A stretch of DNA of 64,000 nt from an uncultured Gammaproteobacteria bacterium (GTDB lineage Bacteria > Patescibacteriota > Patescibacteriia > Magasanikbacterales > JBBTQS01). Both the position numbers and the translations under genes were made by a program. The notes under the pieces are model-generated. The model searched no databases. It saw nothing but the letters and a program-made list of their open reading frames with translations, and had not been told where the DNA came from. Positions 2,507-55,483 of the stretch are shown in pieces; the first letter of the stretch is position 1, and every line of letters begins with the position of its first letter. Location of the stretch: positions 21,367 through 85,366 of the forward strand of contig CAZVIA010000003.1 of assembly GCA_964627525.1 (NCBI GenBank), in the 5' to 3' direction.

Positions 2507-3952
2507 TTATTTTTTTCTTACAATAATATAAACATGTGTAGCAACTGCCTCACTTCCAGGAATCCACATAAAAATTAAATCTAAAAATTTTAGCGGACCA
2601 ATAACCAACATTAAAATGTGTGTAATAAATGGCGCTGCTTTTCGTGAGCCAAAAGACAGAATAACACCAAGCCAATAAGCTAAAAACATCAGTAAAGCAC
2701 TCAAGGGTCCAGAGCGCACGCCTTTTTTTATAATTTCAAGATCACGAAACATGTGCTGTAATCCATTGATAGTGTAGCGATTAAAATCATCTGGAGAAGC
2801 GTGAAAAGGATGAATAAATGGCACACTAATATAAGCATAGCCACCTGGTTTTAAAACCCGAATCATTTCATTGGTCATTGCTTTGGGATTTGGTACATGC
2901 TCAAGAACAGATTCACTCACAAGAGCTTCAATAGAATTATTTTCAAAAGGCAAGTGTTCAGCATCAGCAACAATATCAACTTCATCAAAAGGAAAAACAT
3001 CTAAATTTATAAAATCTTCACCCCAACGATGTGGCCCAGAACCAATGTCTAAAATTTTTGTTTCAGGTTTTAAATACTTGCGAATTTTTTTCGGCCCATT
3101 AACCAACATCAACACAGGACAAAACAAATGCCAAATAAAATAATATAACGCGGGAAATTGTTTGAGAAAAGTTTTTAGCCAATTAATTCCAGTTTTGTGT
3201 TCTTGTGCATTTCTTTTAAAAACTTCCTTGTTAATAAAAACTTTTTTCGGGCGAGGTTTATTTTTTCTTAAATGTAATAAGCGATCACTTAAAATTACAG
3301 CGATTGCTTTAAAACCATCTGAATATTTTATTTTTTTGCCGTCCTCAATATCACGAGGTGAATGTGAAATTGGCGCTTCAACAATTTTATATCCATGACG
3401 TAAAGCTCCTAAAGTAAAATGAATTTCTGATTCAAATTTCCCTGGGCAAAAAAATCGCGCAGATTTTTTTGGAAAAAGTTTATAGCAAGTCCAAACATCT
3501 GTTAGTTTTACACGATACAGTGTGTTGATTAATTTTGTAATAATCCAAACACCAAGTCTAGGAATTATAAAACCTTTTCGTTTTACATGATGCAAATTGC
3601 GTGAACCATAAACACAAGTTTTTTCATCAATAATTTGCTTTACTAAAGAAGGGATTTCAGCAGGGTTGTATTCAAGGTCAGCGTCTTGAATAATAATATA
3701 ATCACCAGTCGCCAAACTCAAACCATCTGTAACTGCACTTCCTTTTCCGCCGTTTTTTTTGCGGTAATGTACAGTAATTTTGTCTTCAAAAGTTTTTAAA
3801 ATTTCACGCGTGCGATCTGTAGAAAAGTCATCAACAACAATAATTTCTTTTTCCCAATTAGGAATAAAAATATTTAAAACTTGCTGAAGAAGTTCAGCAA
3901 CAGTTTTTTCTTCGTTATAACAAGGAATTACTATGGATAATTTACGCATCAT
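2507..3952 (-). CDS. bifunctional family-2 glycosyltransferase fused to a class I SAM-dependent methyltransferase
   Basis: The N-terminus has LSIVIPCYNEE...DDFSTD...QDAD, the GT2 DxD pattern. The C-terminus has LDIGSGPHRW...LPFENNSIEALVSESVLEHV, a type-11 methyltransferase pattern. Confidence 0.7.
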   Translation of the reverse strand: MMRKLSIVIPCYNEEKTVAELLQQVLNIFIPNWEKEIIVVDDFSTDRTREILKTFEDKITVHYRKKNGGKGSAVTDGLSLATGDYIIIQDADLEYNPAEIPSLVKQIIDEKTCVYGSRNLHHVKRKGFIIPRLGVWIITKLINTLYRVKLTDVWTCYKLFPKKSARFFCPGKFESEIHFTLGALRHGYKIVEAPISHSPRDIEDGKKIKYSDGFKAIAVILSDRLLHLRKNKPRPKKVFINKEVFKRNAQEHKTGINWLKTFLKQFPALYYFIWHLFCPVLMLVNGPKKIRKYLKPETKILDIGSGPHRWGEDFINLDVFPFDEVDIVADAEHLPFENNSIEALVSESVLEHVPNPKAMTNEMIRVLKPGGYAYISVPFIHPFHASPDDFNRYTINGLQHMFRDLEIIKKGVRSGPLSALLMFLAYWLGVILSFGSRKAAPFITHILMLVIGPLKFLDLIFMWIPGSEAVATHVYIIVRKK

Positions 3953-5324
3953 AATTTATTTTTTTGCAACGACAAAGTTTTTTATATAAAACAGAAATAC
4001 CGTAAAAAGCAAACATAAATAAAATTGGATTTATTGGCATACGAAAACGACCGTTTACACCCAAGCCATTTACACAAGTTGTTGCCATAAAATATAAAAC
4101 TAACAATAACAATAGCACGACAGGTAATTTAAATCCAAATCTTTTCAAGTACACGGCAGTTCCAAAAATAAAAAATAAAGTAATCAAAATCCAAAGTATT
4201 CTTCCAAACAAAACCAAAGCCATTGGAGATTTCGCCAATCCCCACATCTCATGTAAAAATTCCATTGGATTATTTAATAATAAAACCAAGGCAGGTTTTT
4301 CTAAATAATTAGATGGACGAATGCCAGTATACTGCAAAACCATTAGCATTCCATCATGCGTGAAAAAAGTTATAGCACTTGTGCCAATACTTTGAACCAA
4401 GCCCATAGGGTGCGCCAAAATAACTGGAATTGCATCGCCAATATATTTACTACTATTTCCAAGATTAATATCAGTGGATTTTAAACCTGAAGCATAAAGC
4501 AAATCTCGTTCGTGTCTGTAGTTAGTGTCATTTTCAAAAGACAAAACAGATGGAACTAAATATGTTGCAACATTAAATGCAGGTTGTGCAGTCATTCCCG
4601 GAACTCCGAATTGTTTGTAATTTCTGTAAAACCACGGCATTGCAAATAGTAAGATAATAAAAACAAAAAGCACTGCTGGTCTTAAAGATTTTTTCCAAGA
4701 AAATTTGCGATGTTTGCGTAAAAAATATATTACAACCAACGGAAGAATAAAAGCAATATATTGAGTTGTTGGTTTTATCATTAAAGCTGCCCCAAAAGAA
4801 ATTGAAAGCCAGAACATTATTTTGAGATCAGGTTTTTCAAGAAATTTTAAGAAAAGTAAAATAGATAATAAAAATAATGCAATGAAAAAAGTTTCAGTCA
4901 CAAAAAGAAATGAGAAAAGCATTGAAAGTGGTTCTAAAGCCATGGCCAGCCCCACCCAAAAGGATATTTTTTCAGAAACAAAATAACGTGCAATTAAATA
5001 TGAAAAAACAGGGATTAAACAAGCCACAAGAATTTGTAAAATTGCTGCCAGCCAATATGAACCAGGTGCAGATAATAATCCAGCTAATAATAGGGGATAC
5101 AACGGCGGACGAAGTGGGTTTGGTGTGTAAGGGGGTTCAGTTTCAAAAGCAAAACCATTTCTATTGATTATATTTAGGGCAATTTCAAGATATCCATCAT
5201 CTCCATAGGTTGTTGCCTCAATAGAAAAATCATTGTGACTGAAATTAATTAAAAATAACCCAGCGCGTAACACCAAGGCAATTAAAAATAAAGCAAGTAT
5301 TGTTTTTGAAAAAAACTTTTTCAT
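3942..5324 (-). CDS. ArnT/PMT-like (GT39/GT83 family) polytopic membrane glycosyltransferase
   Basis: More than ten transmembrane helices and a dolichyl-phosphate-mannose / 4-amino-arabinose transferase-like topology. Overlaps the upstream GT2 gene by 11 bp. Confidence 0.5.
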   Translation of the reverse strand: MKKFFSKTILALFLIALVLRAGLFLINFSHNDFSIEATTYGDDGYLEIALNIINRNGFAFETEPPYTPNPLRPPLYPLLLAGLLSAPGSYWLAAILQILVACLIPVFSYLIARYFVSEKISFWVGLAMALEPLSMLFSFLFVTETFFIALFLLSILLFLKFLEKPDLKIMFWLSISFGAALMIKPTTQYIAFILPLVVIYFLRKHRKFSWKKSLRPAVLFVFIILLFAMPWFYRNYKQFGVPGMTAQPAFNVATYLVPSVLSFENDTNYRHERDLLYASGLKSTDINLGNSSKYIGDAIPVILAHPMGLVQSIGTSAITFFTHDGMLMVLQYTGIRPSNYLEKPALVLLLNNPMEFLHEMWGLAKSPMALVLFGRILWILITLFFIFGTAVYLKRFGFKLPVVLLLLLVLYFMATTCVNGLGVNGRFRMPINPILFMFAFYGISVLYKKLCRCKKINYDA

Positions 5325-5446
5325 GTTATCAGGGCTAAAAAGACTAATGTACTAAACTAAGCTAAATTGTACAGTTTTTATGAAATCTGCGCAAGATTTT
5401 TTTTGAAAAAAATGTGTAAAATAAGCTAAATTTAGGCAAAAATCCC

Positions 5447-5475
5447 TTGACAAAAGTGCCTAAATATGATATAAT
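5447..5475 (+). promoter_or_regulatory. perfect consensus sigma70 promoter, TTGACA-17 bp-TATAAT
   Basis: TTGACA at 5447-5452, a 17-nt spacer, and TATAAT at 5470-5475. The SD AAAGGGAGA lies 5 nt upstream of the ATG at 5536. Confidence 0.7.
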
Positions 5476-5535
5476 ACTATCAATTCGTGTGCTGACTTTG
5501 GCATTGTCAGCCACAACAAAGAAAGGGAGACAGAC

Positions 5536-5946
5536 ATGGAAGGGTTTTTTTACAATCAGTTGGCAGAAGGTTTGTTGCTGGGTATTTTCTCGGGAATCCT
5601 AGTCTTCGTTATCTGCTTCGGCAGAAAGGTGGGGATCGACTGGGCGTATGAGGAGATCAAAGGCAAGCTCGTAGTCGCAGCGTTCACGATGTTCGCGGCG
5701 GGATTCCTCATGATGCAGAGTTACCATGTGGGGCAGATGAACGAGTTCTACTATCTTGCCTACACGCACAACGACGTCTGGACAACTAACGTCCCGATTG
5801 TGGCGCCGTGGGGTTACTTGCTCGGAATGCTGGTGACAACCACTGCAGTGTCGATCGTGGGGGTTAGTTTCTTGAGTCTTGTCGAGTGGTGGTACGCTCG
5901 GCAGGTTCGCATGTCACCGCGCAACGGCAACGGCGGCACGGCGTAG
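5536..5946 (+). CDS. GC-rich (about 55-60%) small integral membrane protein, function unknown
   Basis: Clean ORF with 3-4 TM helices. GC content and codon usage differ sharply from its neighbours. It has its own promoter, SD and terminator. Confidence 0.6.
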   Translation: MEGFFYNQLAEGLLLGIFSGILVFVICFGRKVGIDWAYEEIKGKLVVAAFTMFAAGFLMMQSYHVGQMNEFYYLAYTHNDVWTTNVPIVAPWGYLLGMLVTTTAVSIVGVSFLSLVEWWYARQVRMSPRNGNGGTA

Positions 5947-5987
5947 ACTCCGACAGTCGCGCGCCGTCCTCAATAAGCCACAACACC

Positions 5988-6040
5988 GCGCCCCAGTAAG
6001 ATCGTCACAGGTCTTGCATCTGGGGCGTTCTTTTTTATTT
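5988..6040 (+). terminator. rho-independent terminator
   Basis: An 8-bp GC stem (CGCCCCAG/CTGGGGCG) followed by TTCTTTTTTATTT. Confidence 0.6.
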
Positions 6041-6307
6041 AAAATAAATATCTTTTCTGTGTTTAATTATAAGAATTGTCAACAAAATTAATTGACCATT
6101 TGAATTTTTTTTAAAAATTGCACGATAGTTTCCAATTCTAAATCTGTACAAGCCTTTAAAATAACCAACTAAAGGTTTGGTATGTTTGAGTGGGTTTTTA
6201 TCCTCACAAAAAAATTTAATTTTACTAATTATTTTTTGAGCTTCTTGTTTTTCAATTTTTTGTAAATCTTTTATAGCCTTTTGTGTGTACAAAATTTTAT
6301 ATTTCAT
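6035..6307 (-). CDS. relE: RelE/ParE-family type II toxin
   Basis: 90 aa with a YRFRIGNYRAIF...IIKHRKDIY motif typical of RelE/StbE. Overlaps the upstream antitoxin by 4 bp. Confidence 0.7.
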   Translation of the reverse strand: MKYKILYTQKAIKDLQKIEKQEAQKIISKIKFFCEDKNPLKHTKPLVGYFKGLYRFRIGNYRAIFKKNSNGQLILLTILIIKHRKDIYFK

Positions 6308-6555
6308 ACAACCCCAAGCATATTTTCAACTTCTTTTTGTGTGAGTAAGCGTTTATTTTTTACATCATCAAGAGCTTCATCAACATCCTTAATTAAGTTT
6401 TCAAGAATAGACTCTTTTTTTGAAAGGGGATGTAACTCAAAAATTGGTTGATTTTTTTTCAAAATAATTAGTTTTTGATTTTTGATTTGAGCTTGTGAAG
6501 AAATTTTAGCCATATTTTGACGGAATTCTTTTAAGCCAACAAAGCGGGTAGTCAT
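6304..6555 (-). CDS. Phd/YefM-family antitoxin
   Basis: 83 aa, Phd/YefM-like N-terminus, located immediately upstream of the relE-like gene with an ATGA overlap. Confidence 0.6.
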   Translation of the reverse strand: MTTRFVGLKEFRQNMAKISSQAQIKNQKLIILKKNQPIFELHPLSKKESILENLIKDVDEALDDVKNKRLLTQKEVENMLGVV

Positions 6556-6665
6556 ATGATTTTTTATATAAAAACTATGTGTACTTTAAGTGTACACCTC
6601 ACCAAAAGACGTGTCAAACAAATTTTATGCTACAATAAAACTGAAAAAACCCAAGATAAAATAAA

Positions 6666-7790
6666 ATGAATACAAAAAACAAAATTTATTTAGTAGTAGG
6701 TTTGGTTTTTTGCGTAATAATCGTGGGTTTTTGGGGTTTTGACAAAAAAACCCAGCAAACAATGCCAAAAGTTGAGATGCCAAAAATGTCTGAACAAAAG
6801 ATTCCACCAACAAAAGACGTTAATATAGAAACAGATATCCAGGATATATACAATAAATATTCTACGCACTTAGATAAACAATGGACAGGTGATGGCTGGA
6901 AATACAATGTGCCTTCAAGACATTATAAAGAAATAAATAAAAATTCCTCACAAAATCTGCGAATGCAAATGACTTTTGCGAGTTTTTATAAATACAGAGA
7001 AGATGGATCTTCAAAAGCAAAAATCAAAACAGTTTTTGATCAGGTTTTTAAAGAAGTTTTGCCAAATCAAATATTTTTTGTATCAAGAGATGATAAAATT
7101 ATTTCAACAAGATCATTTCACGACGCGATAGGTTTGTTTTTGGCTTTAGAAATTTTTGGACAAAACCAACATTTATTTACTGAATTAGAAAAAGTTCAAA
7201 TAAAAAGACAGGCAGAAAAAATGTTGCCATGGATTTTAAAAGCACCAGACACTGAAAATCGGGCATTATTGGGTGCTGCATATGGAAAAAAGATTTTGGA
7301 AAATCCTGTGATAAGTTTTTCAGAAAAAGAAAAACAAGAATACAGAGACTTGATAAATCAGAAAATTCAAACAGGTTTAAAAAATATAGACAGCAAAAAT
7401 ATTTATCATGAGGGTGGAAAAAATAATTTTAGTTTGCATTATCATGTTGTTTCAGCTGCGATGTTGTTTGTTTTGGGAGAAAATGAAATTGCCAGGAAAA
7501 TGTCTCAATATGTTCATGATAATTATGAGATAGGGAAGTTGAGTTGGGAGGGTTCGCACAGGCCTACGGGAATTGGACTACAGACAGTTTTACTAAGAAC
7601 ATTTTTGGAAAAAAACTTAAACACAATTTATTGGGCAGATTTTTGGGCTAAAGAGAAAAATGCAAGAGGTTTTATTGACCCAAAAAACGCTGACAGATTG
7701 GTTTGGTATGATGATATCGACAAAACCTATAATGATGACTATTCTTTTGCAAATATGGTGGAAATAATTGGGTTTGGTATGAGCTATTGA
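6666..7790 (+). CDS. hypothetical membrane-anchored exported protein
   Basis: N-terminal TM anchor followed by a 340-aa soluble domain with no recognisable motif. Confidence 0.4.
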   Translation: MNTKNKIYLVVGLVFCVIIVGFWGFDKKTQQTMPKVEMPKMSEQKIPPTKDVNIETDIQDIYNKYSTHLDKQWTGDGWKYNVPSRHYKEINKNSSQNLRMQMTFASFYKYREDGSSKAKIKTVFDQVFKEVLPNQIFFVSRDDKIISTRSFHDAIGLFLALEIFGQNQHLFTELEKVQIKRQAEKMLPWILKAPDTENRALLGAAYGKKILENPVISFSEKEKQEYRDLINQKIQTGLKNIDSKNIYHEGGKNNFSLHYHVVSAAMLFVLGENEIARKMSQYVHDNYEIGKLSWEGSHRPTGIGLQTVLLRTFLEKNLNTIYWADFWAKEKNARGFIDPKNADRLVWYDDIDKTYNDDYSFANMVEIIGFGMSY

Positions 7791-7908
7791 CAGAATTACC
7801 TAAATCTGCTATACTATAACCGGATTTAAGCTAATATTATCACATAGAAATAAGGTCGGATTTCTATTTTTATTAGGAGTCCGTATTAATTAATCATCAA
7901 AAGATACC

Positions 7909-8106
7909 ATGACTGGTTCAATCAAAAAGTTGACTGACAAAAATTTTGGTTTTATTGTTTTGGATGAGGGTGGAGACAATTTGTTTTTCCACGCTAACAA
8001 TCTAGTAGATGTCGATTTTGACTCTCTACAAGAAGGCGATAAAGTTGAATTTGACGTAGTAAGTACGCCAAAAGGTCAAGCAGCTGAAAACGTAAGAAAA
8101 GTTTAA
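7909..8106 (+). CDS. cspA: cold-shock protein (CspA family)
   Basis: 65 aa with FGFI...DNLFFHANNL RNP motifs of the cold-shock domain. Confidence 0.85.
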   Translation: MTGSIKKLTDKNFGFIVLDEGGDNLFFHANNLVDVDFDSLQEGDKVEFDVVSTPKGQAAENVRKV

Positions 8107-8204
8107 ATTAATTTAAATTTTTTATAAAAGCAAAAAACTCGCTTTCGGGCGGGTTTTTTGTTTGTAGGATATTTGTATTTTGGGCGCAAATCTCAAACCA
8201 ACAA

Positions 8205-9998
8205 TCACGAAGCTTTTTTTCTGTTAGATCTGATGCGATCAACTTCAGTAAGTTGTTGTTTTCTTAAACGAATATTTTTTGGAGTAACTTCTAAGTATTC
8301 GTCTTTTGCCATTAACTCTAGGCCACGTTCCAAAGTAACAGGAAGTGGTGGTGTTAAATTTAGCGCATCATCAGCACCTGAAGAACGCATATTGGTTAGG
8401 TGCTTTCCTTTAATAGGATTAACAGTCATGTCCATTCCCTTAGATGTATTTCCAATAACCATTCCTTCATATACCTCAATATTTGGTCCAATATATAAAG
8501 CACCTCGTTCCTGTAAATTTGCCAATGAATAACCCAAAACTTTTCCAGTCTCACCAGAAATCATTGAGCCAACGTCTCGTTTTTCAATTTCACCAGCATA
8601 AGGTTTAAAACCAATCATTTCACTTGCAAGAATTCCTTCGCCATGAGTATCAATTACAAATTCATTTCTATAACCAAGTAATCCTCGAGTTGGAATTATA
8701 AAGTTTAAACGAGTGTGTGATTGTTCTGGCGCCATGTTTAACATTTTACCTTTACGTTTTGCAAGTTTTTCAATAATTGTTCCCACAAAACTTTCTGGAA
8801 CATCAATAGTCAACTCTTCAAAAGGTTCGTGCTTTGTTCCGTCAATTTCTTTAATAATAGCTTGTGGTTGTGATACTTGAACTTCGTATCCTTCGCGTCT
8901 CATGTTTTCAAGCAAAACAGCAACGTGTAATTCTCCACGTCCAAGAACAGCAAACTTATCTGGTTGAGATAAATCAACTTTAATTCCAACGTTTACTTCT
9001 AATTCTTTTTCAAGGCGAGCACGAATTTGTCGGCTAGTTACATATTTTCCATCTTGTCCTGCAAACGGAGAAGTATTAACCAAAAACTGTAATGAAATAG
9101 TTGGCTCATCAATAGTAATAGCTGGAAGAGATTCTTGTGTTTTGTCTTCACAAATTGTGTCTCCAATATAAATATTTGAAATACCTGCGATCATTGCAAT
9201 GTCTCCAGCAAAAATTGTATCAACTTCTTTGCGTTGCACACCTTCAAAAGTAAATAATTTTGTAATATTGCTTTTTGAAATTTCACCATTAATTTTTTTC
9301 ACCTGCACAGTGTCGCCTAAAGAAATTTTTCCTTGATAAACTCTACCAATTCCCATTCGCCCAAGATAATTATCATATGCTAGATTAAACGGTTGAAATG
9401 CAAATTTATCTTCAGTATTATTTGAAGCTGGCTCAACATGTTTGATTATAGTTTCCAAAAGTGGTGTTAAATTTTTGTGTTTATCATTAAGATTAAGAAC
9501 TGCTGTTCCGACTTTTGCATTTGAATATACTGTCACAAAATCAAGTTGTTCATCATTGGCACCAAGATCCATAAATAATTCTAAAACTCGGTCATGTGCC
9601 CAGTCTGGTCTAGCAGCTGGCTTATCAATTTTATTTAAAACCACAATTGGTTTCAACCCAAGTTCTAAAGATTTTTTCAAAACAAATTTTGTTTGAGGCA
9701 TTGGCCCTTCTTGAGCATCAACAATAAGTAAAACAGAATCAATTGATCGCAAAACACGTTCAACTTCAGATCCAAAATCAGCATGCCCAGGTGTGTCTAC
9801 AATGTTGATTTTTGTATCATTAAAAATCACTGAAGTGTTTTTTGAATAAATCGTAATACCACGCTCTTTTTCAAGATCGTTTGAATCCATGCTAATATTC
9901 TCATCAGTAACCATTCCAGTTTGACGCATCAAAGCATCAGTAAGGCGGGTTTTTCCATGATCAACATGTGCAATAATCGCAATGTTTCGAATTTCCAT
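8205..9998 (-). CDS. typA: translational GTPase TypA/BipA
   Basis: [19 protein letters not shown] and NKIDK G-motifs within a BipA-length protein. The likely start is the internal MEIRNIA at 9998; the ORF-track start at 10094 adds a non-conserved 32-aa extension. Confidence 0.85.
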
Positions 9999-10133
9999 AT
10001 TTAATAAATTCAAAACGCCCACTAGTAGGGGACGTGACTGAGTGAGTATATAGGATGTAGAGGTATTTGTCAAGCTCGCGTTCCTGGTTGCCAAGCTTGG
10101 TCTGTGTTAGTATGAAGTATATAATTTACTACT

Positions 10134-18204: not shown

Positions 18205-19038
18205 ATGAAAATATTTGATGAAAACCAAAAATTAATTTTTAAATTACAGAAGTGTGGTTTAACAAAAAAACAGACCACTGTTTATCTTGGTCTTTTAGAA
18301 TTAGGAGGTGCTTTTCCTTCAAAAGTTTCTGATTATGTAAACATGAATAGATCAACTGTTTATAAAATTCTTAGTGATTTATCTATTAAAAATTTAATTG
18401 TTGAAACAAAAAAAAGAGGTAAGTGGTTTTATTGTGTTGAAAAACCAGAAAAACTATTGTCTCACAACAAACGCAGGATTAATATATTAAATAAAGAAAT
18501 TAAAAGTACTGAAAATGTTTTAAAGGATTTAAATAGTTTATTTTCTTTAAATTTACAAAAACCAAAAATTAAATTTTATGAGGGTGTTGAAGGGGTCTTA
18601 GAAGTGTTTCGTAGTCATCTGAATATTGAAAAGCCGTATGAAATGTTGGCTGTTTGTAATGCATCTAAGTTTTTAAAATTTATTCCTAATAAGGAATTAA
18701 AAAAATATTTGAAAGCAAAAGAAAAGTTGGAGATTACAACCAGGGGATTAGTGCCAGATACAAATACAGACATCAAATATAATAATAGTGCTTGTAAAAA
18801 TGCTGGGGTTAGCAAAAAAACATGGCCAAAGTTGAGGTTTGTTTCTTCAGAGGTTTTTAATATGGGAAGTGATATAACTGTTTATGGTGAGGATAAAATA
18901 TCAATTATAAATTTTACTAATGATAAATTGATAGGGATTATCATCGAAGATAAAACTATACACGATATGTTTAAAATGGTCTTTAATCTTGCGTGGAAAG
19001 GTGCTGAGAGGGGTTGTTTAAGATGTTCACTATTGTGA
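18205..19038 (+). CDS. TrmB-family-like HTH transcriptional regulator; paralogue of the gene at 24712
   Basis: The N-terminal LTKKQTTVYLGLLELG...STVYKILSDLSIKNLI winged-HTH pattern resembles TrmB. The last six codons and the stop lie inside repeat copy 3. Confidence 0.5.
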   Translation: MKIFDENQKLIFKLQKCGLTKKQTTVYLGLLELGGAFPSKVSDYVNMNRSTVYKILSDLSIKNLIVETKKRGKWFYCVEKPEKLLSHNKRRINILNKEIKSTENVLKDLNSLFSLNLQKPKIKFYEGVEGVLEVFRSHLNIEKPYEMLAVCNASKFLKFIPNKELKKYLKAKEKLEITTRGLVPDTNTDIKYNNSACKNAGVSKKTWPKLRFVSSEVFNMGSDITVYGEDKISIINFTNDKLIGIIIEDKTIHDMFKMVFNLAWKGAERGCLRCSLL

Positions 19039-19061
19039 AGGATGTTAGGATTGGGTTTTTT
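19024..19061 (+). repeat. 38-bp junction repeat, copy 3
   Basis: TGTTCACTATTGTGAAGGATGTTAGGATTGGGTTTTTT. Confidence 0.8.
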
Positions 19062-19125
19062 TAGATATTTTATAATTTCAGTCGGTATGGTAGTATAGAT
19101 TATATAAGTTTAATCAAATAAATAT

Positions 19126-19557
19126 ATGAATTTTCAAATAGAAAATTGTGGTTTTTGCCAATATAATAAAACCAAAAATACATTCAAAAAAATGAATTTT
19201 CAGCCAAGTGGAATTGAAGGTGGAGGTCAAAATAGCGCAGAAAGAGCTGGTTTTTGTAAAGATGGGAATAATCCAGAGACGTGCGAGACATGTAAAACAG
19301 AAAATGAAATTAAATTAATGGAAGCTCAAGCTGAAATTGATAATAGAGCAAAAATAGTGGACGCAGAAGCAGGTGAGTTAAGAGCACAAAGTATTAGGGC
19401 TACTGGTGAGCAAATGCATAGACAGATGGCAGATGATGCAGAAATGACTGCAAGGCAAATGGAGAGGTTTGGTTATGGAAAAGGTAAAGAAAGGTTAAAT
19501 ACATTTCATGACAAAAACGAAGAATTTTACGATCAAAGAGGTAGAAAAAAAGAATAA
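19126..19557 (+). CDS. hypothetical zinc-ribbon protein (CGFC...CETC) with a coiled-coil C-terminus, copy 1
   Basis: 143 aa with two CxxC pairs and an A/E/R-rich helical tail. Confidence 0.5.
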   Translation: MNFQIENCGFCQYNKTKNTFKKMNFQPSGIEGGGQNSAERAGFCKDGNNPETCETCKTENEIKLMEAQAEIDNRAKIVDAEAGELRAQSIRATGEQMHRQMADDAEMTARQMERFGYGKGKERLNTFHDKNEEFYDQRGRKKE

Positions 19558-19627
19558 TAGTTATATAAGGTTATTAAACAGAAGTTTTTTTGTTTGTGTT
19601 AATATAGTAAATATTTAATCAAAAACC

Positions 19628-20200
19628 ATGAGAGGAGAAAGAAGACCTGGAGAAGGTTCTAATGCGCGTGAGTTTAAAGCGCCCTCATCACTTTCTGAAG
19701 AAGATCATTATTCTACTTTGGGAGTTTCTAGAAATTCTAGCCCTGCTGAACTTAAAGCAGCTTATCGTGCGTTGGCACAAATCCATCATCCAGATAAAGG
19801 TGGTAATGAGGAAGATTTTAAACTTGTTGGTCAAGCTTTTGAAGTTCTTAGTGATCCAGGTCAGCGTGAGACATATGATCTTACTAAGTTTGCGCCTAGC
19901 AGTCCTGAACAACAAACATACGAAACAGGTGTTAGGCAGCCTACTGAAGAAGAAAAGAGAAGAATGGATGAGGAACTTGCCAAAGATAGAGCCAGAAGAG
20001 AAAAAGAGAGAAAAGAGAGAAAAGAAAAATGGAGAAAAGAACATCCAGAACTTGCAAGACAGCAAGATGAAATTGGGGCAGCTAAAAAAGAAGCAGTAAG
20101 CCAAGTAAAGGAAGATTTAGCCAAAGCAAAGGAAGATTTAGCAAAAATGAAAACTGATTTAAGAGCTAGGGCAGCTGAAATGAAAAGTAAACGGTTCTAA
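19628..20200 (+). CDS. J-domain (DnaJ-like) protein with a K/E-rich coiled-coil tail, copy 1
   Basis: DHYSTLGVSRNSSPAELKAAYRALAQIHHPDKGG...FKLVGQAFEVLSDPGQRETYD is a canonical J-domain with the HPD motif. Confidence 0.75.
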   Translation: MRGERRPGEGSNAREFKAPSSLSEEDHYSTLGVSRNSSPAELKAAYRALAQIHHPDKGGNEEDFKLVGQAFEVLSDPGQRETYDLTKFAPSSPEQQTYETGVRQPTEEEKRRMDEELAKDRARREKERKERKEKWRKEHPELARQQDEIGAAKKEAVSQVKEDLAKAKEDLAKMKTDLRARAAEMKSKRF

Positions 20201-20241
20201 TATTAACATTACCTATCTCAATTTTTACTTGAACTTAGTAG

Positions 20242-20279
20242 TGTTCACTATTGTGAAGGATGTTAGGATTGGGTTTTTT
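20242..20279 (+). repeat. 38-bp junction repeat, copy 4
   Basis: Identical to copy 3. Confidence 0.8.
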
Positions 20280-20343
20280 TAGATATTTTATAATTTCAGT
20301 CGGTATGGTAGTATAGATTATATAAGTTTAATCAAATAAATAT

Positions 20344-20775
20344 ATGAATTTTCAAATAGAAAATTGTGGTTTTTGCCAATATAATAAAACCAAAAATACA
20401 TTCAAAAAAATGAATTTTCAGCCAAGTGGAATTGAAGGTGGAGGTCAAAATAGCGCAGAAAGAGCTGGTTTTTGTAAAGATGGGAATAATCCAGAGACGT
20501 GCGAGACATGTAAAACAGAAAATGAAATTAAATTAATGGAAGCTCAAGCTGAAATTGATAATAGAGCAAAAATAGTGGACGCAGAAGCAGGTGAGTTAAG
20601 AGCACAAAGTATTAGGGCTACTGGTGAGCAAATGCATAGACAGATGGCAGATGATGCAGAAATGACTGCAAGGCAAATGGAGAGGTTTGGTTATGGAAAA
20701 GGTAAAGAAAGGTTAAATACATTTCATGACAAAAACGAAGAATTTTACGATCAAAGAGGTAGAAAAAAAGAATAA
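20344..20775 (+). CDS. hypothetical zinc-ribbon protein, copy 2 (identical)
   Basis: 100% identical duplicate. Confidence 0.5.
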   Translation: MNFQIENCGFCQYNKTKNTFKKMNFQPSGIEGGGQNSAERAGFCKDGNNPETCETCKTENEIKLMEAQAEIDNRAKIVDAEAGELRAQSIRATGEQMHRQMADDAEMTARQMERFGYGKGKERLNTFHDKNEEFYDQRGRKKE

Positions 20776-20845
20776 TAGTTATATAAGGTTATTAAACAGA
20801 AGTTTTTTTGTTTGTGTTAATATAGTAAATATTTAATCAAAAACC

Positions 20846-21418
20846 ATGAGAGGAGAAAGAAGACCTGGAGAAGGTTCTAATGCGCGTGAGTTTAAAGCGC
20901 CCTCATCACTTTCTGAAGAAGATCATTATTCTACTTTGGGAGTTTCTAGAAATTCTAGCCCTGCTGAACTTAAAGCAGCTTATCGTGCGTTGGCACAAAT
21001 CCATCATCCAGATAAAGGTGGTAATGAGGAAGATTTTAAACTTGTTGGTCAAGCTTTTGAAGTTCTTAGTGATCCAGGTCAGCGTGAGACATATGATCTT
21101 ACTAAGTTTGCGCCTAGCAGTCCTGAACAACAAACATACGAAACAGGTGTTAGGCAGCCTACTGAAGAAGAAAAGAGAAGAATGGATGAGGAACTTGCCA
21201 AAGATAGAGCCAGAAGAGAAAAAGAGAGAAAAGAGAGAAAAGAAAAATGGAGAAAAGAACATCCAGAACTTGCAAGACAGCAAGATGAAATTGGGGCAGC
21301 TAAAAAAGAAGCAGTAAGCCAAGTAAAGGAAGATTTAGCCAAAGCAAAGGAAGATTTAGCAAAAATGAAAACTGATTTAAGAGCTAGGGCAGCTGAAATG
21401 AAAAGTAAACGGTTCTAA
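20846..21418 (+). CDS. J-domain protein, copy 2 (identical)
   Basis: 100% identical duplicate. Confidence 0.75.
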   Translation: MRGERRPGEGSNAREFKAPSSLSEEDHYSTLGVSRNSSPAELKAAYRALAQIHHPDKGGNEEDFKLVGQAFEVLSDPGQRETYDLTKFAPSSPEQQTYETGVRQPTEEEKRRMDEELAKDRARREKERKERKEKWRKEHPELARQQDEIGAAKKEAVSQVKEDLAKAKEDLAKMKTDLRARAAEMKSKRF

Positions 21419-21459
21419 TATTAACATTACCTATCTCAATTTTTACTTGAACTTAGTAG

Positions 21460-21497
21460 TGTTCACTATTGTAGAGGATGTTAGAACTGGGTTTTAT
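21460..21497 (+). repeat. 38-bp junction repeat, copy 5 (variant TGTTCACTATTGTAGAGGATGTTAGAACTGGGTTTTAT)
   Basis: The palindrome is disrupted (GTAGA instead of GTGAA); this copy ends the duplicated block. Confidence 0.75.
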
Positions 21498-40674: not shown

Positions 40675-40703
40675 CTTGACAAAATCTTTAATTTGTGCTA
40701 TAC
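40675..40703 (+). promoter_or_regulatory. near-consensus sigma70 promoter, TTGACA-17-TATACT
   Basis: TTGACA at 40675-40680 and TATACT at 40698-40703. No ORF follows. Confidence 0.5.
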
Positions 40704-40709
40704 TAGTTT

Positions 40710-40902
40710 AGTCAATCAGGTGAAAGCCTTTATTGCTTGACCATGTTGGGTCAGGTGGGCAGAGATACGAAACCAGTCAAATGGGAGTAGGGTTTGGCCA
40801 CGGCATCAAAGGTGGAAAGCTGATTGTACTTTCCCGCTAGTTACAGGTCTGAAAACCTGGGCGGAAGAGGCGGTCTGAACATCGGATCGCCTATTTTTTT
40901 TT
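40710..40902 (+). ncRNA. candidate small RNA of about 190 nt, class unknown, with its own promoter and intrinsic terminator
   Basis: GC-richer than the flanks. Ends in an 8-bp stem (AGGCGGTC/GATCGCCT) plus T9 at 40868-40902. No ORF with an SD. Confidence 0.4.
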
Positions 40903-40914
40903 ATAAATTTTTAA

Positions 40915-41265
40915 TTTAAATAAAAAAGAAGGGGTTCCGTGGGAAAACCCCTTCTTTAATGCCTACTAGCTTTTCGTAGTGATAGTGATGGCATGCAGAG
41001 CTTCGTGTTACAGAAGGTCCTCACATCTACAAAAAGACTAGCTCAGCTAGGTTAGTAAGGGCTTGCTGCAGTATGACCAATGTATTTACTACACTTTCTC
41101 ACCCAAAGATAGGGTGCTCGCGGGATTCGAACCCGGGCTGCAGGGCTGATCAGGCCAACACCCAATCTCTTCCTCCGTTAATCGTCGCGCGGTTTCCAGT
41201 GGCAGACTGATGATAAGATAGCATGTTGGGTTTGGGTGTGCAAGAGGTGTGGGTTTTCAAGAAAT
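40915..41265 (-). ncRNA. candidate structured RNA on the minus strand containing a tRNA-like T-arm (GGTTCGAATCC); possible tmRNA-like or other RNA
   Basis: GC-rich in an AT-rich genome. The minus strand reads ...CCCGGGTTCGAATCCCGCGAGCACC... A perfect 11-bp hairpin (AAGAAGGGGTT/AACCCCTTCTT at 40926-40956) followed by a T-run on the minus strand acts as its terminator. Confidence 0.35.
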
Positions 41266-41317
41266 AGTTTTTTATAGTAAGATGCAGAAGGAGTTAAACT
41301 TGGGGAGGGTGTTTCAG

Positions 41318-41545
41318 ATGACGAGGTATTTTTTGGTTTCTTTGGCAATGGTGCTGATTGGTCTTGGGTCTGTTGTTGTAGATCGATTCTATGGTGTTTC
41401 ACCTTTTCCAAGTGGAGCACTGGCTGGTGGCGGTGTTGCTTTGGTTTTGGTTGGGTTTTGCAGTGCGGCGGCAATACTAAAGATGGTGGTAGCTCGTGAT
41501 CGTGACGCCCGTACAAATCGTGTAAATGAGGAAACACGGACTTGA
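41318..41545 (+). CDS. GC-rich small two-TM membrane protein of about 75 aa
   Basis: GGAGGGTG SD followed by the ATG at 41318. It encodes MTRYFLVSLAMVLIGLG... GC is about 50%. Confidence 0.4.
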   Translation: MTRYFLVSLAMVLIGLGSVVVDRFYGVSPFPSGALAGGGVALVLVGFCSAAAILKMVVARDRDARTNRVNEETRT

Positions 41546-54959: not shown

Positions 54960-55420
54960 AAAATAAAAAAAGAGCCAGACATTACGGAGTGTTATGCTTC
55001 TACGTTTTGTCTGGCCCCTCTCCAGGGGAGTTGTGTGTTTTGCCTAGATCAAGAGCTTGTCATTGCCCTAACTGTTCACAGTGTCTCTTTCTTTTGCTTT
55101 TCAGACAATTCTACCGAGGTAGAAGGGGAGGGAAAAACCAAGGTAGTTTGCCTCAGGCTGGGAGGAGAAACTTGTTGGTAAACAGCAGCTCTTGCAGGCA
55201 CTCTAGACTAACACATTGTCCTGCGAGGAGCACGCGCCGTCGGCGTACTAGAATATTTCAGTGTCGTTGCAGGGGAGCTAGACACCTTGACACTCTTCAA
55301 TCCCTTTATCCGTTCTTACAGGACTAGATACGCGCGCACACTTCCCCAGCACACACGCATCCACACTTTGGAGCAACATAGTGTGCAGGGACAATTTGCA
55401 AGAAAATTATAAATCTTTTT
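54960..55420. other. GC-rich (above 50%) non-coding island of about 460 bp; candidate large structured RNA or a decayed foreign gene
   Basis: No credible ORF (no SD, junk-like composition) and several strong local hairpins (GCCAGACA...TGTCTGGC; CCCCT-ctcc-AGGGG; ACGCC-gtc-GGCGT). Confidence 0.3.
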
Positions 55421-55483
55421 GAAAGTGTTGTCAAGTCCTAGTTGTGTATAGTATTATATATATAGTAATTAAGAAAAAAATTC

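Follow-up and report, generated by a model that had tools for sequence, protein, structure and literature searches.

A GC-rich orphan gene for a predicted membrane protein, probably acquired recently, in a variable slot of an AT-rich bacterial genome

A moron is an acquired gene that differs from the adjoining genes in guanine-plus-cytosine (GC) content and is served by a promoter and a terminator of its own (PMC3594210). The first example was gp15 of HK97, a small protein of the inner membrane that acts in superinfection exclusion (Cumby et al. 2012, PMC3594210). Here we describe a locus with a comparable layout in a 64,000-nucleotide window (the whole stretch of DNA that was analysed) of contig CAZVIA010000003.1, GenBank assembly GCA_964627525.1. 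Between a glycosyltransferase operon and a toxin-antitoxin pair lies an open reading frame (ORF) of 136 codons, 5536-5946, with a consensus promoter and a Shine-Dalgarno (SD) sequence before it and an intrinsic terminator behind it. We find that the composition of this gene is foreign to the genome, that it is protein-coding, and that it lies in a variable chromosomal slot. Taken together, these observations suggest that the locus is probably a coding gene of foreign origin, organized as a moron-like autonomous unit and gained by recent horizontal acquisition. A literature search for GC-rich orphan genes in genomes of the candidate phyla radiation turned up no specific precedent.

Composition and coding capacity of the GC-rich island

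The mean GC of the window is 0.34. A two-state change-point fit resolves a 542-bp island with a GC of 0.548, compared with 0.288 in its flanks (log-likelihood gain 56.6); its edges, at 5486 and 6027, are sharp, and the same island is seen in the composition profile. The gene had been described as GC-rich at about 57%, and it is indeed GC-rich, although the values are 0.54 for the ORF and 0.55 for the island. At the first, second and third codon positions of the ORF, GC is 0.50/0.39/0.73, and the third-position value (GC3) compares with 0.24 +/- 0.043 (maximum 0.34) in 34 long host ORFs. This is the highest GC3 among the real ORFs of the window and the only such signature; the remaining ORFs of high GC3 merely shadow real genes in another frame. 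Fit to host codon usage was expressed as an index similar to the codon adaptation index, which is 0.31 for the ORF, whereas host genes average 0.71 and do not fall below 0.55. The codon-usage comparison that the original prediction had named as a check thus places the gene outside the host range, and its composition is foreign to the genome. The share of arginine among the basic residues, R/(R+K), is 0.57 in the encoded protein and 0.29 +/- 0.09 in the host, with only seven residues behind the former value. By the general relation between GC3 and genomic GC, a GC3 of 0.73 corresponds to a donor genome of roughly 55-60% GC.

GC-rich islands in AT-rich genomes are more often structured RNAs than foreign genes. 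Under such an explanation, the island would be a structured noncoding RNA gene and the 136-codon frame a by-product of its low stop-codon content; the same promoter class precedes two apparent noncoding RNAs of the window (40712-40900 and 54965-55405), and the JGI gene caller did not call the ORF. Codon periodicity and RNA folding were assessed with two GC-rich noncoding islands of the same window as controls (Table 1). The three-base periodicity of the ORF (chi-square 41.9) was reached by none of the 733 shuffles that stayed open in frame (mean 7, maximum 27), and an open frame arises rarely by chance, since those 733 were drawn from 400,000 shuffles. The first codon position is enriched in G and the second in T. 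Folding of the ORF is not in excess of expectation (z -0.24), compared with -3.0 and -5.2 in the noncoding-RNA-like islands; the whole island folds at z -1.4 to -2.1, mainly because of the terminator. Rfam 15 gave no match to the island at gathering score, and the best matches at E <= 10 are noise. In addition, a well-spaced SD precedes an ATG that is the first possible start codon of the frame, and the hydropathy is that of a membrane protein obeying the positive-inside rule. The strong periodicity, the lack of excess folding and of an Rfam match, and the membrane-protein hydropathy with positive-inside charge together indicate that the island is a protein-coding gene and not a structured RNA; we regard the noncoding-RNA explanation as very improbable.

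A second GC-rich ORF of the window (41318-41545) had been thought to resemble the 136-codon gene, and this resemblance does not hold: its GC3 is a host-like 0.33, and the two proteins share no similarity (BLASTP E = 41). Its GC at the three codon positions is 0.61/0.49/0.33, and its GC-richness stems from a Gly/Ala/Val-rich composition. Read from an upstream GTG (41249-41545, plus strand), it encodes a 98-aa Gly/Ala/Val-rich protein with two transmembrane (TM) segments that matches only itself among 5.8 billion proteins.

Several apparently noncoding GC-rich stretches were also seen. On the minus strand, about 430 nt of GC-rich (0.49) sequence lie downstream of the other perfect TTGACA-17-TATAAT promoter, which runs from 55434 to 55406. 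This region, 54965-55434, has no ORF longer than 41 aa on that strand, no codon periodicity, a hairpin and T-run near 54965-55000, a folding z of -3.0 and no Rfam match even at E <= 1; it is a candidate for a large structured RNA outside known families. On the plus strand, at 40676-40900, a TG-extended TTGACA-17-TATACT promoter is followed by a predicted, highly structured RNA of about 190 nt (z -4.9 to -5.2) that has no Rfam match at E <= 1. CAAUCAG/CUGAUUG closes its multi-branch domain, and its terminator is an 11-bp hairpin with a U-run. Finally, GCCCGGGTTCGAATCCCGC at 41100-41140 (minus strand) resembles a tRNA T-arm. It lies in a noncoding stretch of 50% GC, 40985-41250, in which neither ARAGORN nor Rfam finds a tRNA or tmRNA and which shows no excess folding (z +0.7).

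Expression signals and the predicted membrane protein

The promoter, SD, ORF and 8-bp GC-stem terminator described in the original prediction are all present, and the unit is self-contained as had been proposed. The promoter lies 61 nt upstream of the ATG and matches the consensus perfectly, with a TG extension; an estimate from base composition gives about 0.06 chance occurrences of such a site in the window. Twelve sites in the 64 kb score at least 11/12, and one further site scores 12/12. Near-consensus promoters are thus common here, and the one at 5447 is typical of the strong native promoters of the window, not unique. It is AT-rich and native-looking, and shares the spacer motif CCTAAAT with the promoter of a cold-shock gene at 7787. 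A comparable pair was noted elsewhere: the near-consensus promoters of TypA/BipA (10073, minus strand) and of a 788-aa gene (12319, plus strand) have an 11-nt spacer motif, CCTCTACATCC, in common. These shared spacer motifs hint at promoter sub-classes or spacer-binding regulators in this genome.

Transcription is predicted to start near 5482. A perfect inverted repeat around the -35 box could serve as an operator and is a candidate lead only: an equally good repeat occurs in about 5% of shuffled intergenic regions (P ~0.05), and no palindrome of this kind is present at the toxin-antitoxin promoter. The leader can form a hairpin of -13.2 kcal/mol, which is statistically unremarkable (z only -0.9), and the SD and ATG are unpaired in the minimum-energy fold. 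The 8-bp GC stem (5989-5996/6020-6027) proves to be the outer half of a 16-bp terminator hairpin, which folds at -27.5 kcal/mol (z -3.2; 2/200 shuffles fold as well). Its T-run and the stop codon (6035-6037) of the convergent toxin gene overlap, and the predicted transcript ends near 6036. The gene had also been said to look possibly highly expressed. The signals are strong, and it is from them that we infer expression.

The encoded protein is small and membrane-bound by prediction, as had been suggested, although hydropathy gives three TM helices (residues ~9-29, 43-63 and 92-117) where three or four had been proposed. Charges are distributed as the positive-inside rule requires, and the C-terminal tail is rich in arginine (R122, R125 and R129), suggesting a membrane orientation in which the N-terminus is outside and the C-terminus inside. 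A single-sequence AlphaFold2 (AF2) model consists of three long helices, at low confidence (predicted local distance difference test score, pLDDT, 66). TM1 carries the motif G12xxxG16xxxG20 and TM3 the motif G93xxxG97xxxT101; TM2 and TM3 are joined by a long (~28 aa), aromatic-rich loop. Small-residue motifs of the GxxxG type favour helix packing or oligomerisation, and their presence suggests the same for TM1 and TM3, although in a protein containing 15 glycines such motifs are statistically unremarkable.

Homology searches returned no relative of this protein. A word-indexed search of 5.8 billion clustered proteins and an exhaustive phmmer (HMMER) search of 1.84 billion representatives both recovered only the protein itself. 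Nothing significant was found in Pfam (best E 0.14, to unrelated DUFs), NCBIfam, PHROGs or PADLOC, and the best match among PDB sequences (E 0.085, to antibody chains) is noise. Neither tblastn nor blastn gave a significant match in phage and plasmid DNA, scans of viral and JGI metagenome contigs with back-translated patterns gave no match, and Foldseek comparison of the AF2 model with PDB and viral structures gave nothing below E = 0.4. By all of these searches, the protein is a complete orphan without a family.

Class I holins have three TM helices, an N-out/C-in topology and a basic C-terminal tail, and the predicted protein has the same layout. The gene could in principle be the remnant of a class-I-holin-like lysis or toxin gene from a degraded mobile element, silenced by a repressor bound at the inverted repeat. 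The GxxxGxxxG motif in TM1, the perfect 9-nt repeat around the -35 box and the position next to a toxin-antitoxin module in a variable slot would all fit. However, the surrounding 6 kb contain no endolysin, phage or integrase gene, and there is no holin family match in Pfam or PHROGs and no dual-start motif; the holin matches of the model among viral structures are not significant (Foldseek E > 0.8), and the inverted repeat is barely beyond chance. We consider a holin-like origin quite improbable.

Table 1 Features of the locus and control islands (window coordinates).
Feature	Coordinates	Strand	Description
GC-rich island	5486..6027	+	Equals the predicted transcript body: begins ~4 nt past the predicted start and runs through the terminator stem; change-point fit
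Candidate operator	5430-5438 / 5457-5465		Perfect 9-nt inverted repeat ATTTAGGCA / TGCCTAAAT; brackets the -35 box
Sigma-70-type promoter	-35 5447-5452, -10 5470-5475	+	TTGACA-17-TATAAT with TGn extended -10; 12/12 match
Predicted 5' leader hairpin	5487..5514	+	9-bp stem interrupted by one bulge; 5 nt from the predicted 5' end
Shine-Dalgarno	5522..5530	+	AAAGGGAGA; GGGAG core 5525-5529, ends 6 nt before ATG 5536; read from sequence
CDS (coding sequence) of predicted 136-aa orphan integral membrane protein	5536..5946	+	Periodicity (chi-square 41.9), GC by codon position, hydropathy; RNA fold z -0.24
Intrinsic terminator	5988..6036	+	16-bp bipartite hairpin 5988-6028, then T-run TTCTTTTTT
ParE/RelE-family toxin	6035-6307	-	PF05016 38.7 bits, E = 1.5e-9; TIGR02385 32.2 bits, E = 1.1e-7; both above cut-off
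Phd/YefM-like antitoxin	6304-6555	-	PF02604 23.6 bits, E = 4.4e-5; below cut-off
Variable slot	5325..8204		Between PMT_2 (3942-5324) and TypA/BipA (8205-10094); tblastx synteny map
Control island, GC-rich, noncoding	40710-40895	+	Chi-square 3; RNA fold z -5.2
Control island, GC-rich, noncoding	54965-55405	-	Chi-square 11; RNA fold z -3.0

The variable slot and the case for recent acquisition

To the left, the gene is preceded by a GT2-methyltransferase and a PMT_2 glycosyltransferase; to the right, it converges with a type II toxin-antitoxin pair (6035..6555, minus strand) that is AT-rich like the host. The neighbours named in the original prediction, glycosyltransferases and a RelE/Phd pair, were borne out, the toxin by two family matches above cut-off and the antitoxin by one below it. 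Together with a 374-aa orphan and a cold-shock protein, the gene and the toxin-antitoxin pair make up the content of the variable slot between PMT_2 and TypA/BipA. The flanks are chromosomal (TypA/BipA, GreA, PMT_2, GT2, hydrogenase-like), with no integrase and no significant PHROGs match within 6 kb. The 374-aa protein (6666-7790, plus strand) is N-terminally anchored and has no match in Pfam, NCBIfam or PADLOC, and a weak one in PHROGs (E 0.016).

Few genomes of this lineage have been sampled. Among PMT_2 homologues the closest, at 66% identity, belongs to a single relative, L003, and the databases searched contain no closer genome; the next are ~45% identical, and one of these is named Parcubacteria. 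L003 is syntenic on both sides of the slot, with 85% identity for TypA/BipA and 66-77% for PMT_2 and the GT2-methyltransferase, and the slot content is entirely different: between TypA and PMT_2, L003 has one gene only. The gene in question thus lies in a variable chromosomal slot. The original prediction had pointed to the locus in related genomes as a check, where the same gene at the same position with similar GC would speak against recent acquisition. The sole syntenic relative does not have the gene, although that relative is distant. The one gene in the L003 slot (4541-7933, minus strand) encodes a 1130-aa protein of Thr/Gly/Ser-rich repeats with an N-terminal signal-anchor-like segment, which is probably a surface protein. 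If so, both genomes would have a hot spot for accessory genes of the cell envelope in this slot.

An abrupt switch in composition at both ends of a segment that is found in no relative could also reflect a chimera of metagenome assembly or a contaminant fragment. However, identical DNA is present in five assemblies (Logan SRR8062331, ENA SAMN10231901, ENA SAMN10231903, JGI 3300009374 and Logan SRR9166041), which represent at least four samples and different pipelines and differ by 0-2 mismatches over 4-11 kb, none of them in the island. All have the same junctions, with the limit that the SRR9166041 contig ends inside the ORF at window position 5632 and confirms the left one only. A literature search turned up no paper that names these sample accessions. 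The island also fits exactly between the promoter and the stop codon of the neighbouring gene. These results make a chimera or contaminant extremely improbable.

The JGI assembly was at one point a candidate empty site, as it has an identical PMT_2 protein and no 136-aa protein; it was rejected because its DNA is the same and contains the intact ORF. In its annotation (locus L005, Ga0118720_1005657, 5379-5789), a 42-aa ORF on the opposite strand is called in place of the 136-aa gene. Elsewhere in the window, a 190-aa ORF is present twice in a perfect tandem duplication (period 1218 bp, identical run of 1231 nt; copies 19024-20241 and 20242-21459, span 19024-21472), which could reflect either a genuine, recent event or an artefact of assembly.

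The original prediction had raised recent acquisition as a possible origin of the gene, and this is the best-supported interpretation and a rather probable one, although not proven. We infer the transfer from GC3 (0.73 versus 0.24), from a codon index far below the host minimum (0.31 versus 0.55) and from the absence of the gene in L003. The proposed sequence of events is as follows. A segment of ~540 bp from a donor of ~55-60% GC would have entered a variable chromosomal slot of an AT-rich (34% GC) bacterium, which we call Parcubacteria-like only on the basis of the 45%-identical PMT_2 homologue so named. The segment would have brought the leader, ribosome-binding site, ORF, 3' untranslated region (UTR) and terminator, and would now act as an autonomous, monocistronic transcription unit. 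A strong native-type sigma-70 promoter is expected to start transcription near 5482, the unpaired SD to allow efficient translation, and the long GC hairpin and T-run to end the transcript just ahead of the convergent toxin gene. The product would be a 136-aa integral membrane protein of three helices, with its N-terminus outside and its arginine-rich C-terminus inside. In its anatomy, the unit would work like a phage moron: a gene of foreign composition with its own promoter and terminator, set between resident genes.

Several observations weigh against this interpretation. No integrase, transposase, attachment site or significant target-site duplication is found at the locus. A 10-nt direct repeat, AGCCACAACA, flanks the ORF; it was considered as a target-site duplication and is treated as chance, since its chance probability is ~0.11 and it lies within the island. 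L003, the only relative available, is distant (66% amino-acid identity), and its whole slot differs, so that this is not a true empty-site comparison. All copies of the island are clonal. No search, those of assemblies from the same samples included, revealed a donor or homologue, which is odd for a gene that is unameliorated and hence of recent transfer. The GC island corresponds exactly to the transcript body and the promoter is AT-rich and native-looking, whereas a gene transferred with its own promoter would not predict an island that ends at an AT-rich native promoter. The amino-acid composition of the protein is only mildly shifted toward GC. Finally, the function that we would propose, a membrane-level accessory protective factor, for example in exclusion or immunity, is a doubtful guess by analogy with small moron-encoded membrane proteins.

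Some of these observations would be accounted for by a native, lineage-specific gene in which selection acting on the RNA maintains a high GC along the entire transcript, without horizontal transfer; the transcript could be an ultra-stable or dual-function mRNA, its synonymous sites recoded against a strong AT mutational bias. The coincidence of the island edges with the predicted transcript, the concentration of the anomaly at synonymous sites with only mildly shifted amino acids, and the missing donor are consistent with this, and other GC-rich islands behind near-perfect promoters of the window are stable noncoding RNAs and a tRNA. However, selection for a stable RNA sits poorly with an ORF that has no excess structure and an island whose folding comes mainly from its terminator, and the gene is missing from the syntenic slot of L003. 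We know of no precedent for a gene recoded to a GC3 of 0.73 in a genome with a GC3 of 0.24. A native origin thus appears improbable, and recent acquisition remains the preferred interpretation.

If recent acquisition is correct, the locus illustrates gene gain cleanly and in minimal form, in a bacterium that is reduced, AT-rich and probably episymbiotic: next to a toxin-antitoxin module in a chromosomal hot spot, a foreign ORF with its own terminator has come under a consensus promoter of resident type. Cases of this kind show how a streamlined genome can go on sampling accessory functions at the membrane. The donor, unsampled and of ~55-60% GC, could be the host of this organism or a mobile element of that host. 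Because codon usage caused one public annotation to miss the gene, such orphans are likely under-counted in protein databases, and genes with foreign codon usage in genomes of this kind may be systematically missing from them. Lateral gain as such is a well-known kind of event that opens no long-standing question; what is new here is a protein without a family.

Comparison with known systems

The likeness to phage morons lies in the one-gene transcription unit, which by its sequence has its own promoter and intrinsic terminator, in a GC content unlike that of the flanks, and in the position between resident genes; like HK97 gp15, the product is predicted to be a small membrane protein. Unlike in phage morons, no phage or prophage is recognisable here, the flanks being chromosomal TypA and a glycosyltransferase operon, and the promoter lies outside the compositionally foreign segment. 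Moreover, the protein has no sequence similarity and no significant fold similarity to gp15 or any other moron product. The three features that define a moron are thus present and the phage context is absent: the gene works like a moron and is not a member of that class.

An integron cassette is similarly a foreign ORF that lacks a foreign promoter of its own and sits directly behind a strong resident promoter. In contrast to a cassette, no GTTRRRY/RYYYAAC core was seen on reading the 3' UTR, the 3' inverted repeat is the terminator, and there is neither an IntI integrase within 6 kb nor a cassette array. Class I holins and small exclusion or immunity membrane proteins resemble the predicted product in length (~100-140 aa), in three predicted TM helices, in N-out/C-in topology and in a positive cytoplasmic tail. 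The likeness to holins is one of topology only: a lysis cassette, a family match and a dual-start motif are lacking, and the TM2-TM3 loop is long and aromatic-rich.

The closest correspondence is with islets of atypical composition and acquired ORFans (orphan ORFs). Like these, the gene is short, taxonomically restricted and without homologues, its codon usage is far from that of the host, and it occupies a variable slot beside a toxin-antitoxin module, missing at the syntenic position of the nearest relative (a single relative). It differs from them in having no mobility gene, tRNA anchor or flanking repeat, in a donor that is unsampled despite the absence of amelioration, and in being a single gene with unusually complete, near-ideal expression signals. 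Thus, the best-fitting class for this gene is that of laterally acquired orphan genes in chromosomal variable slots.

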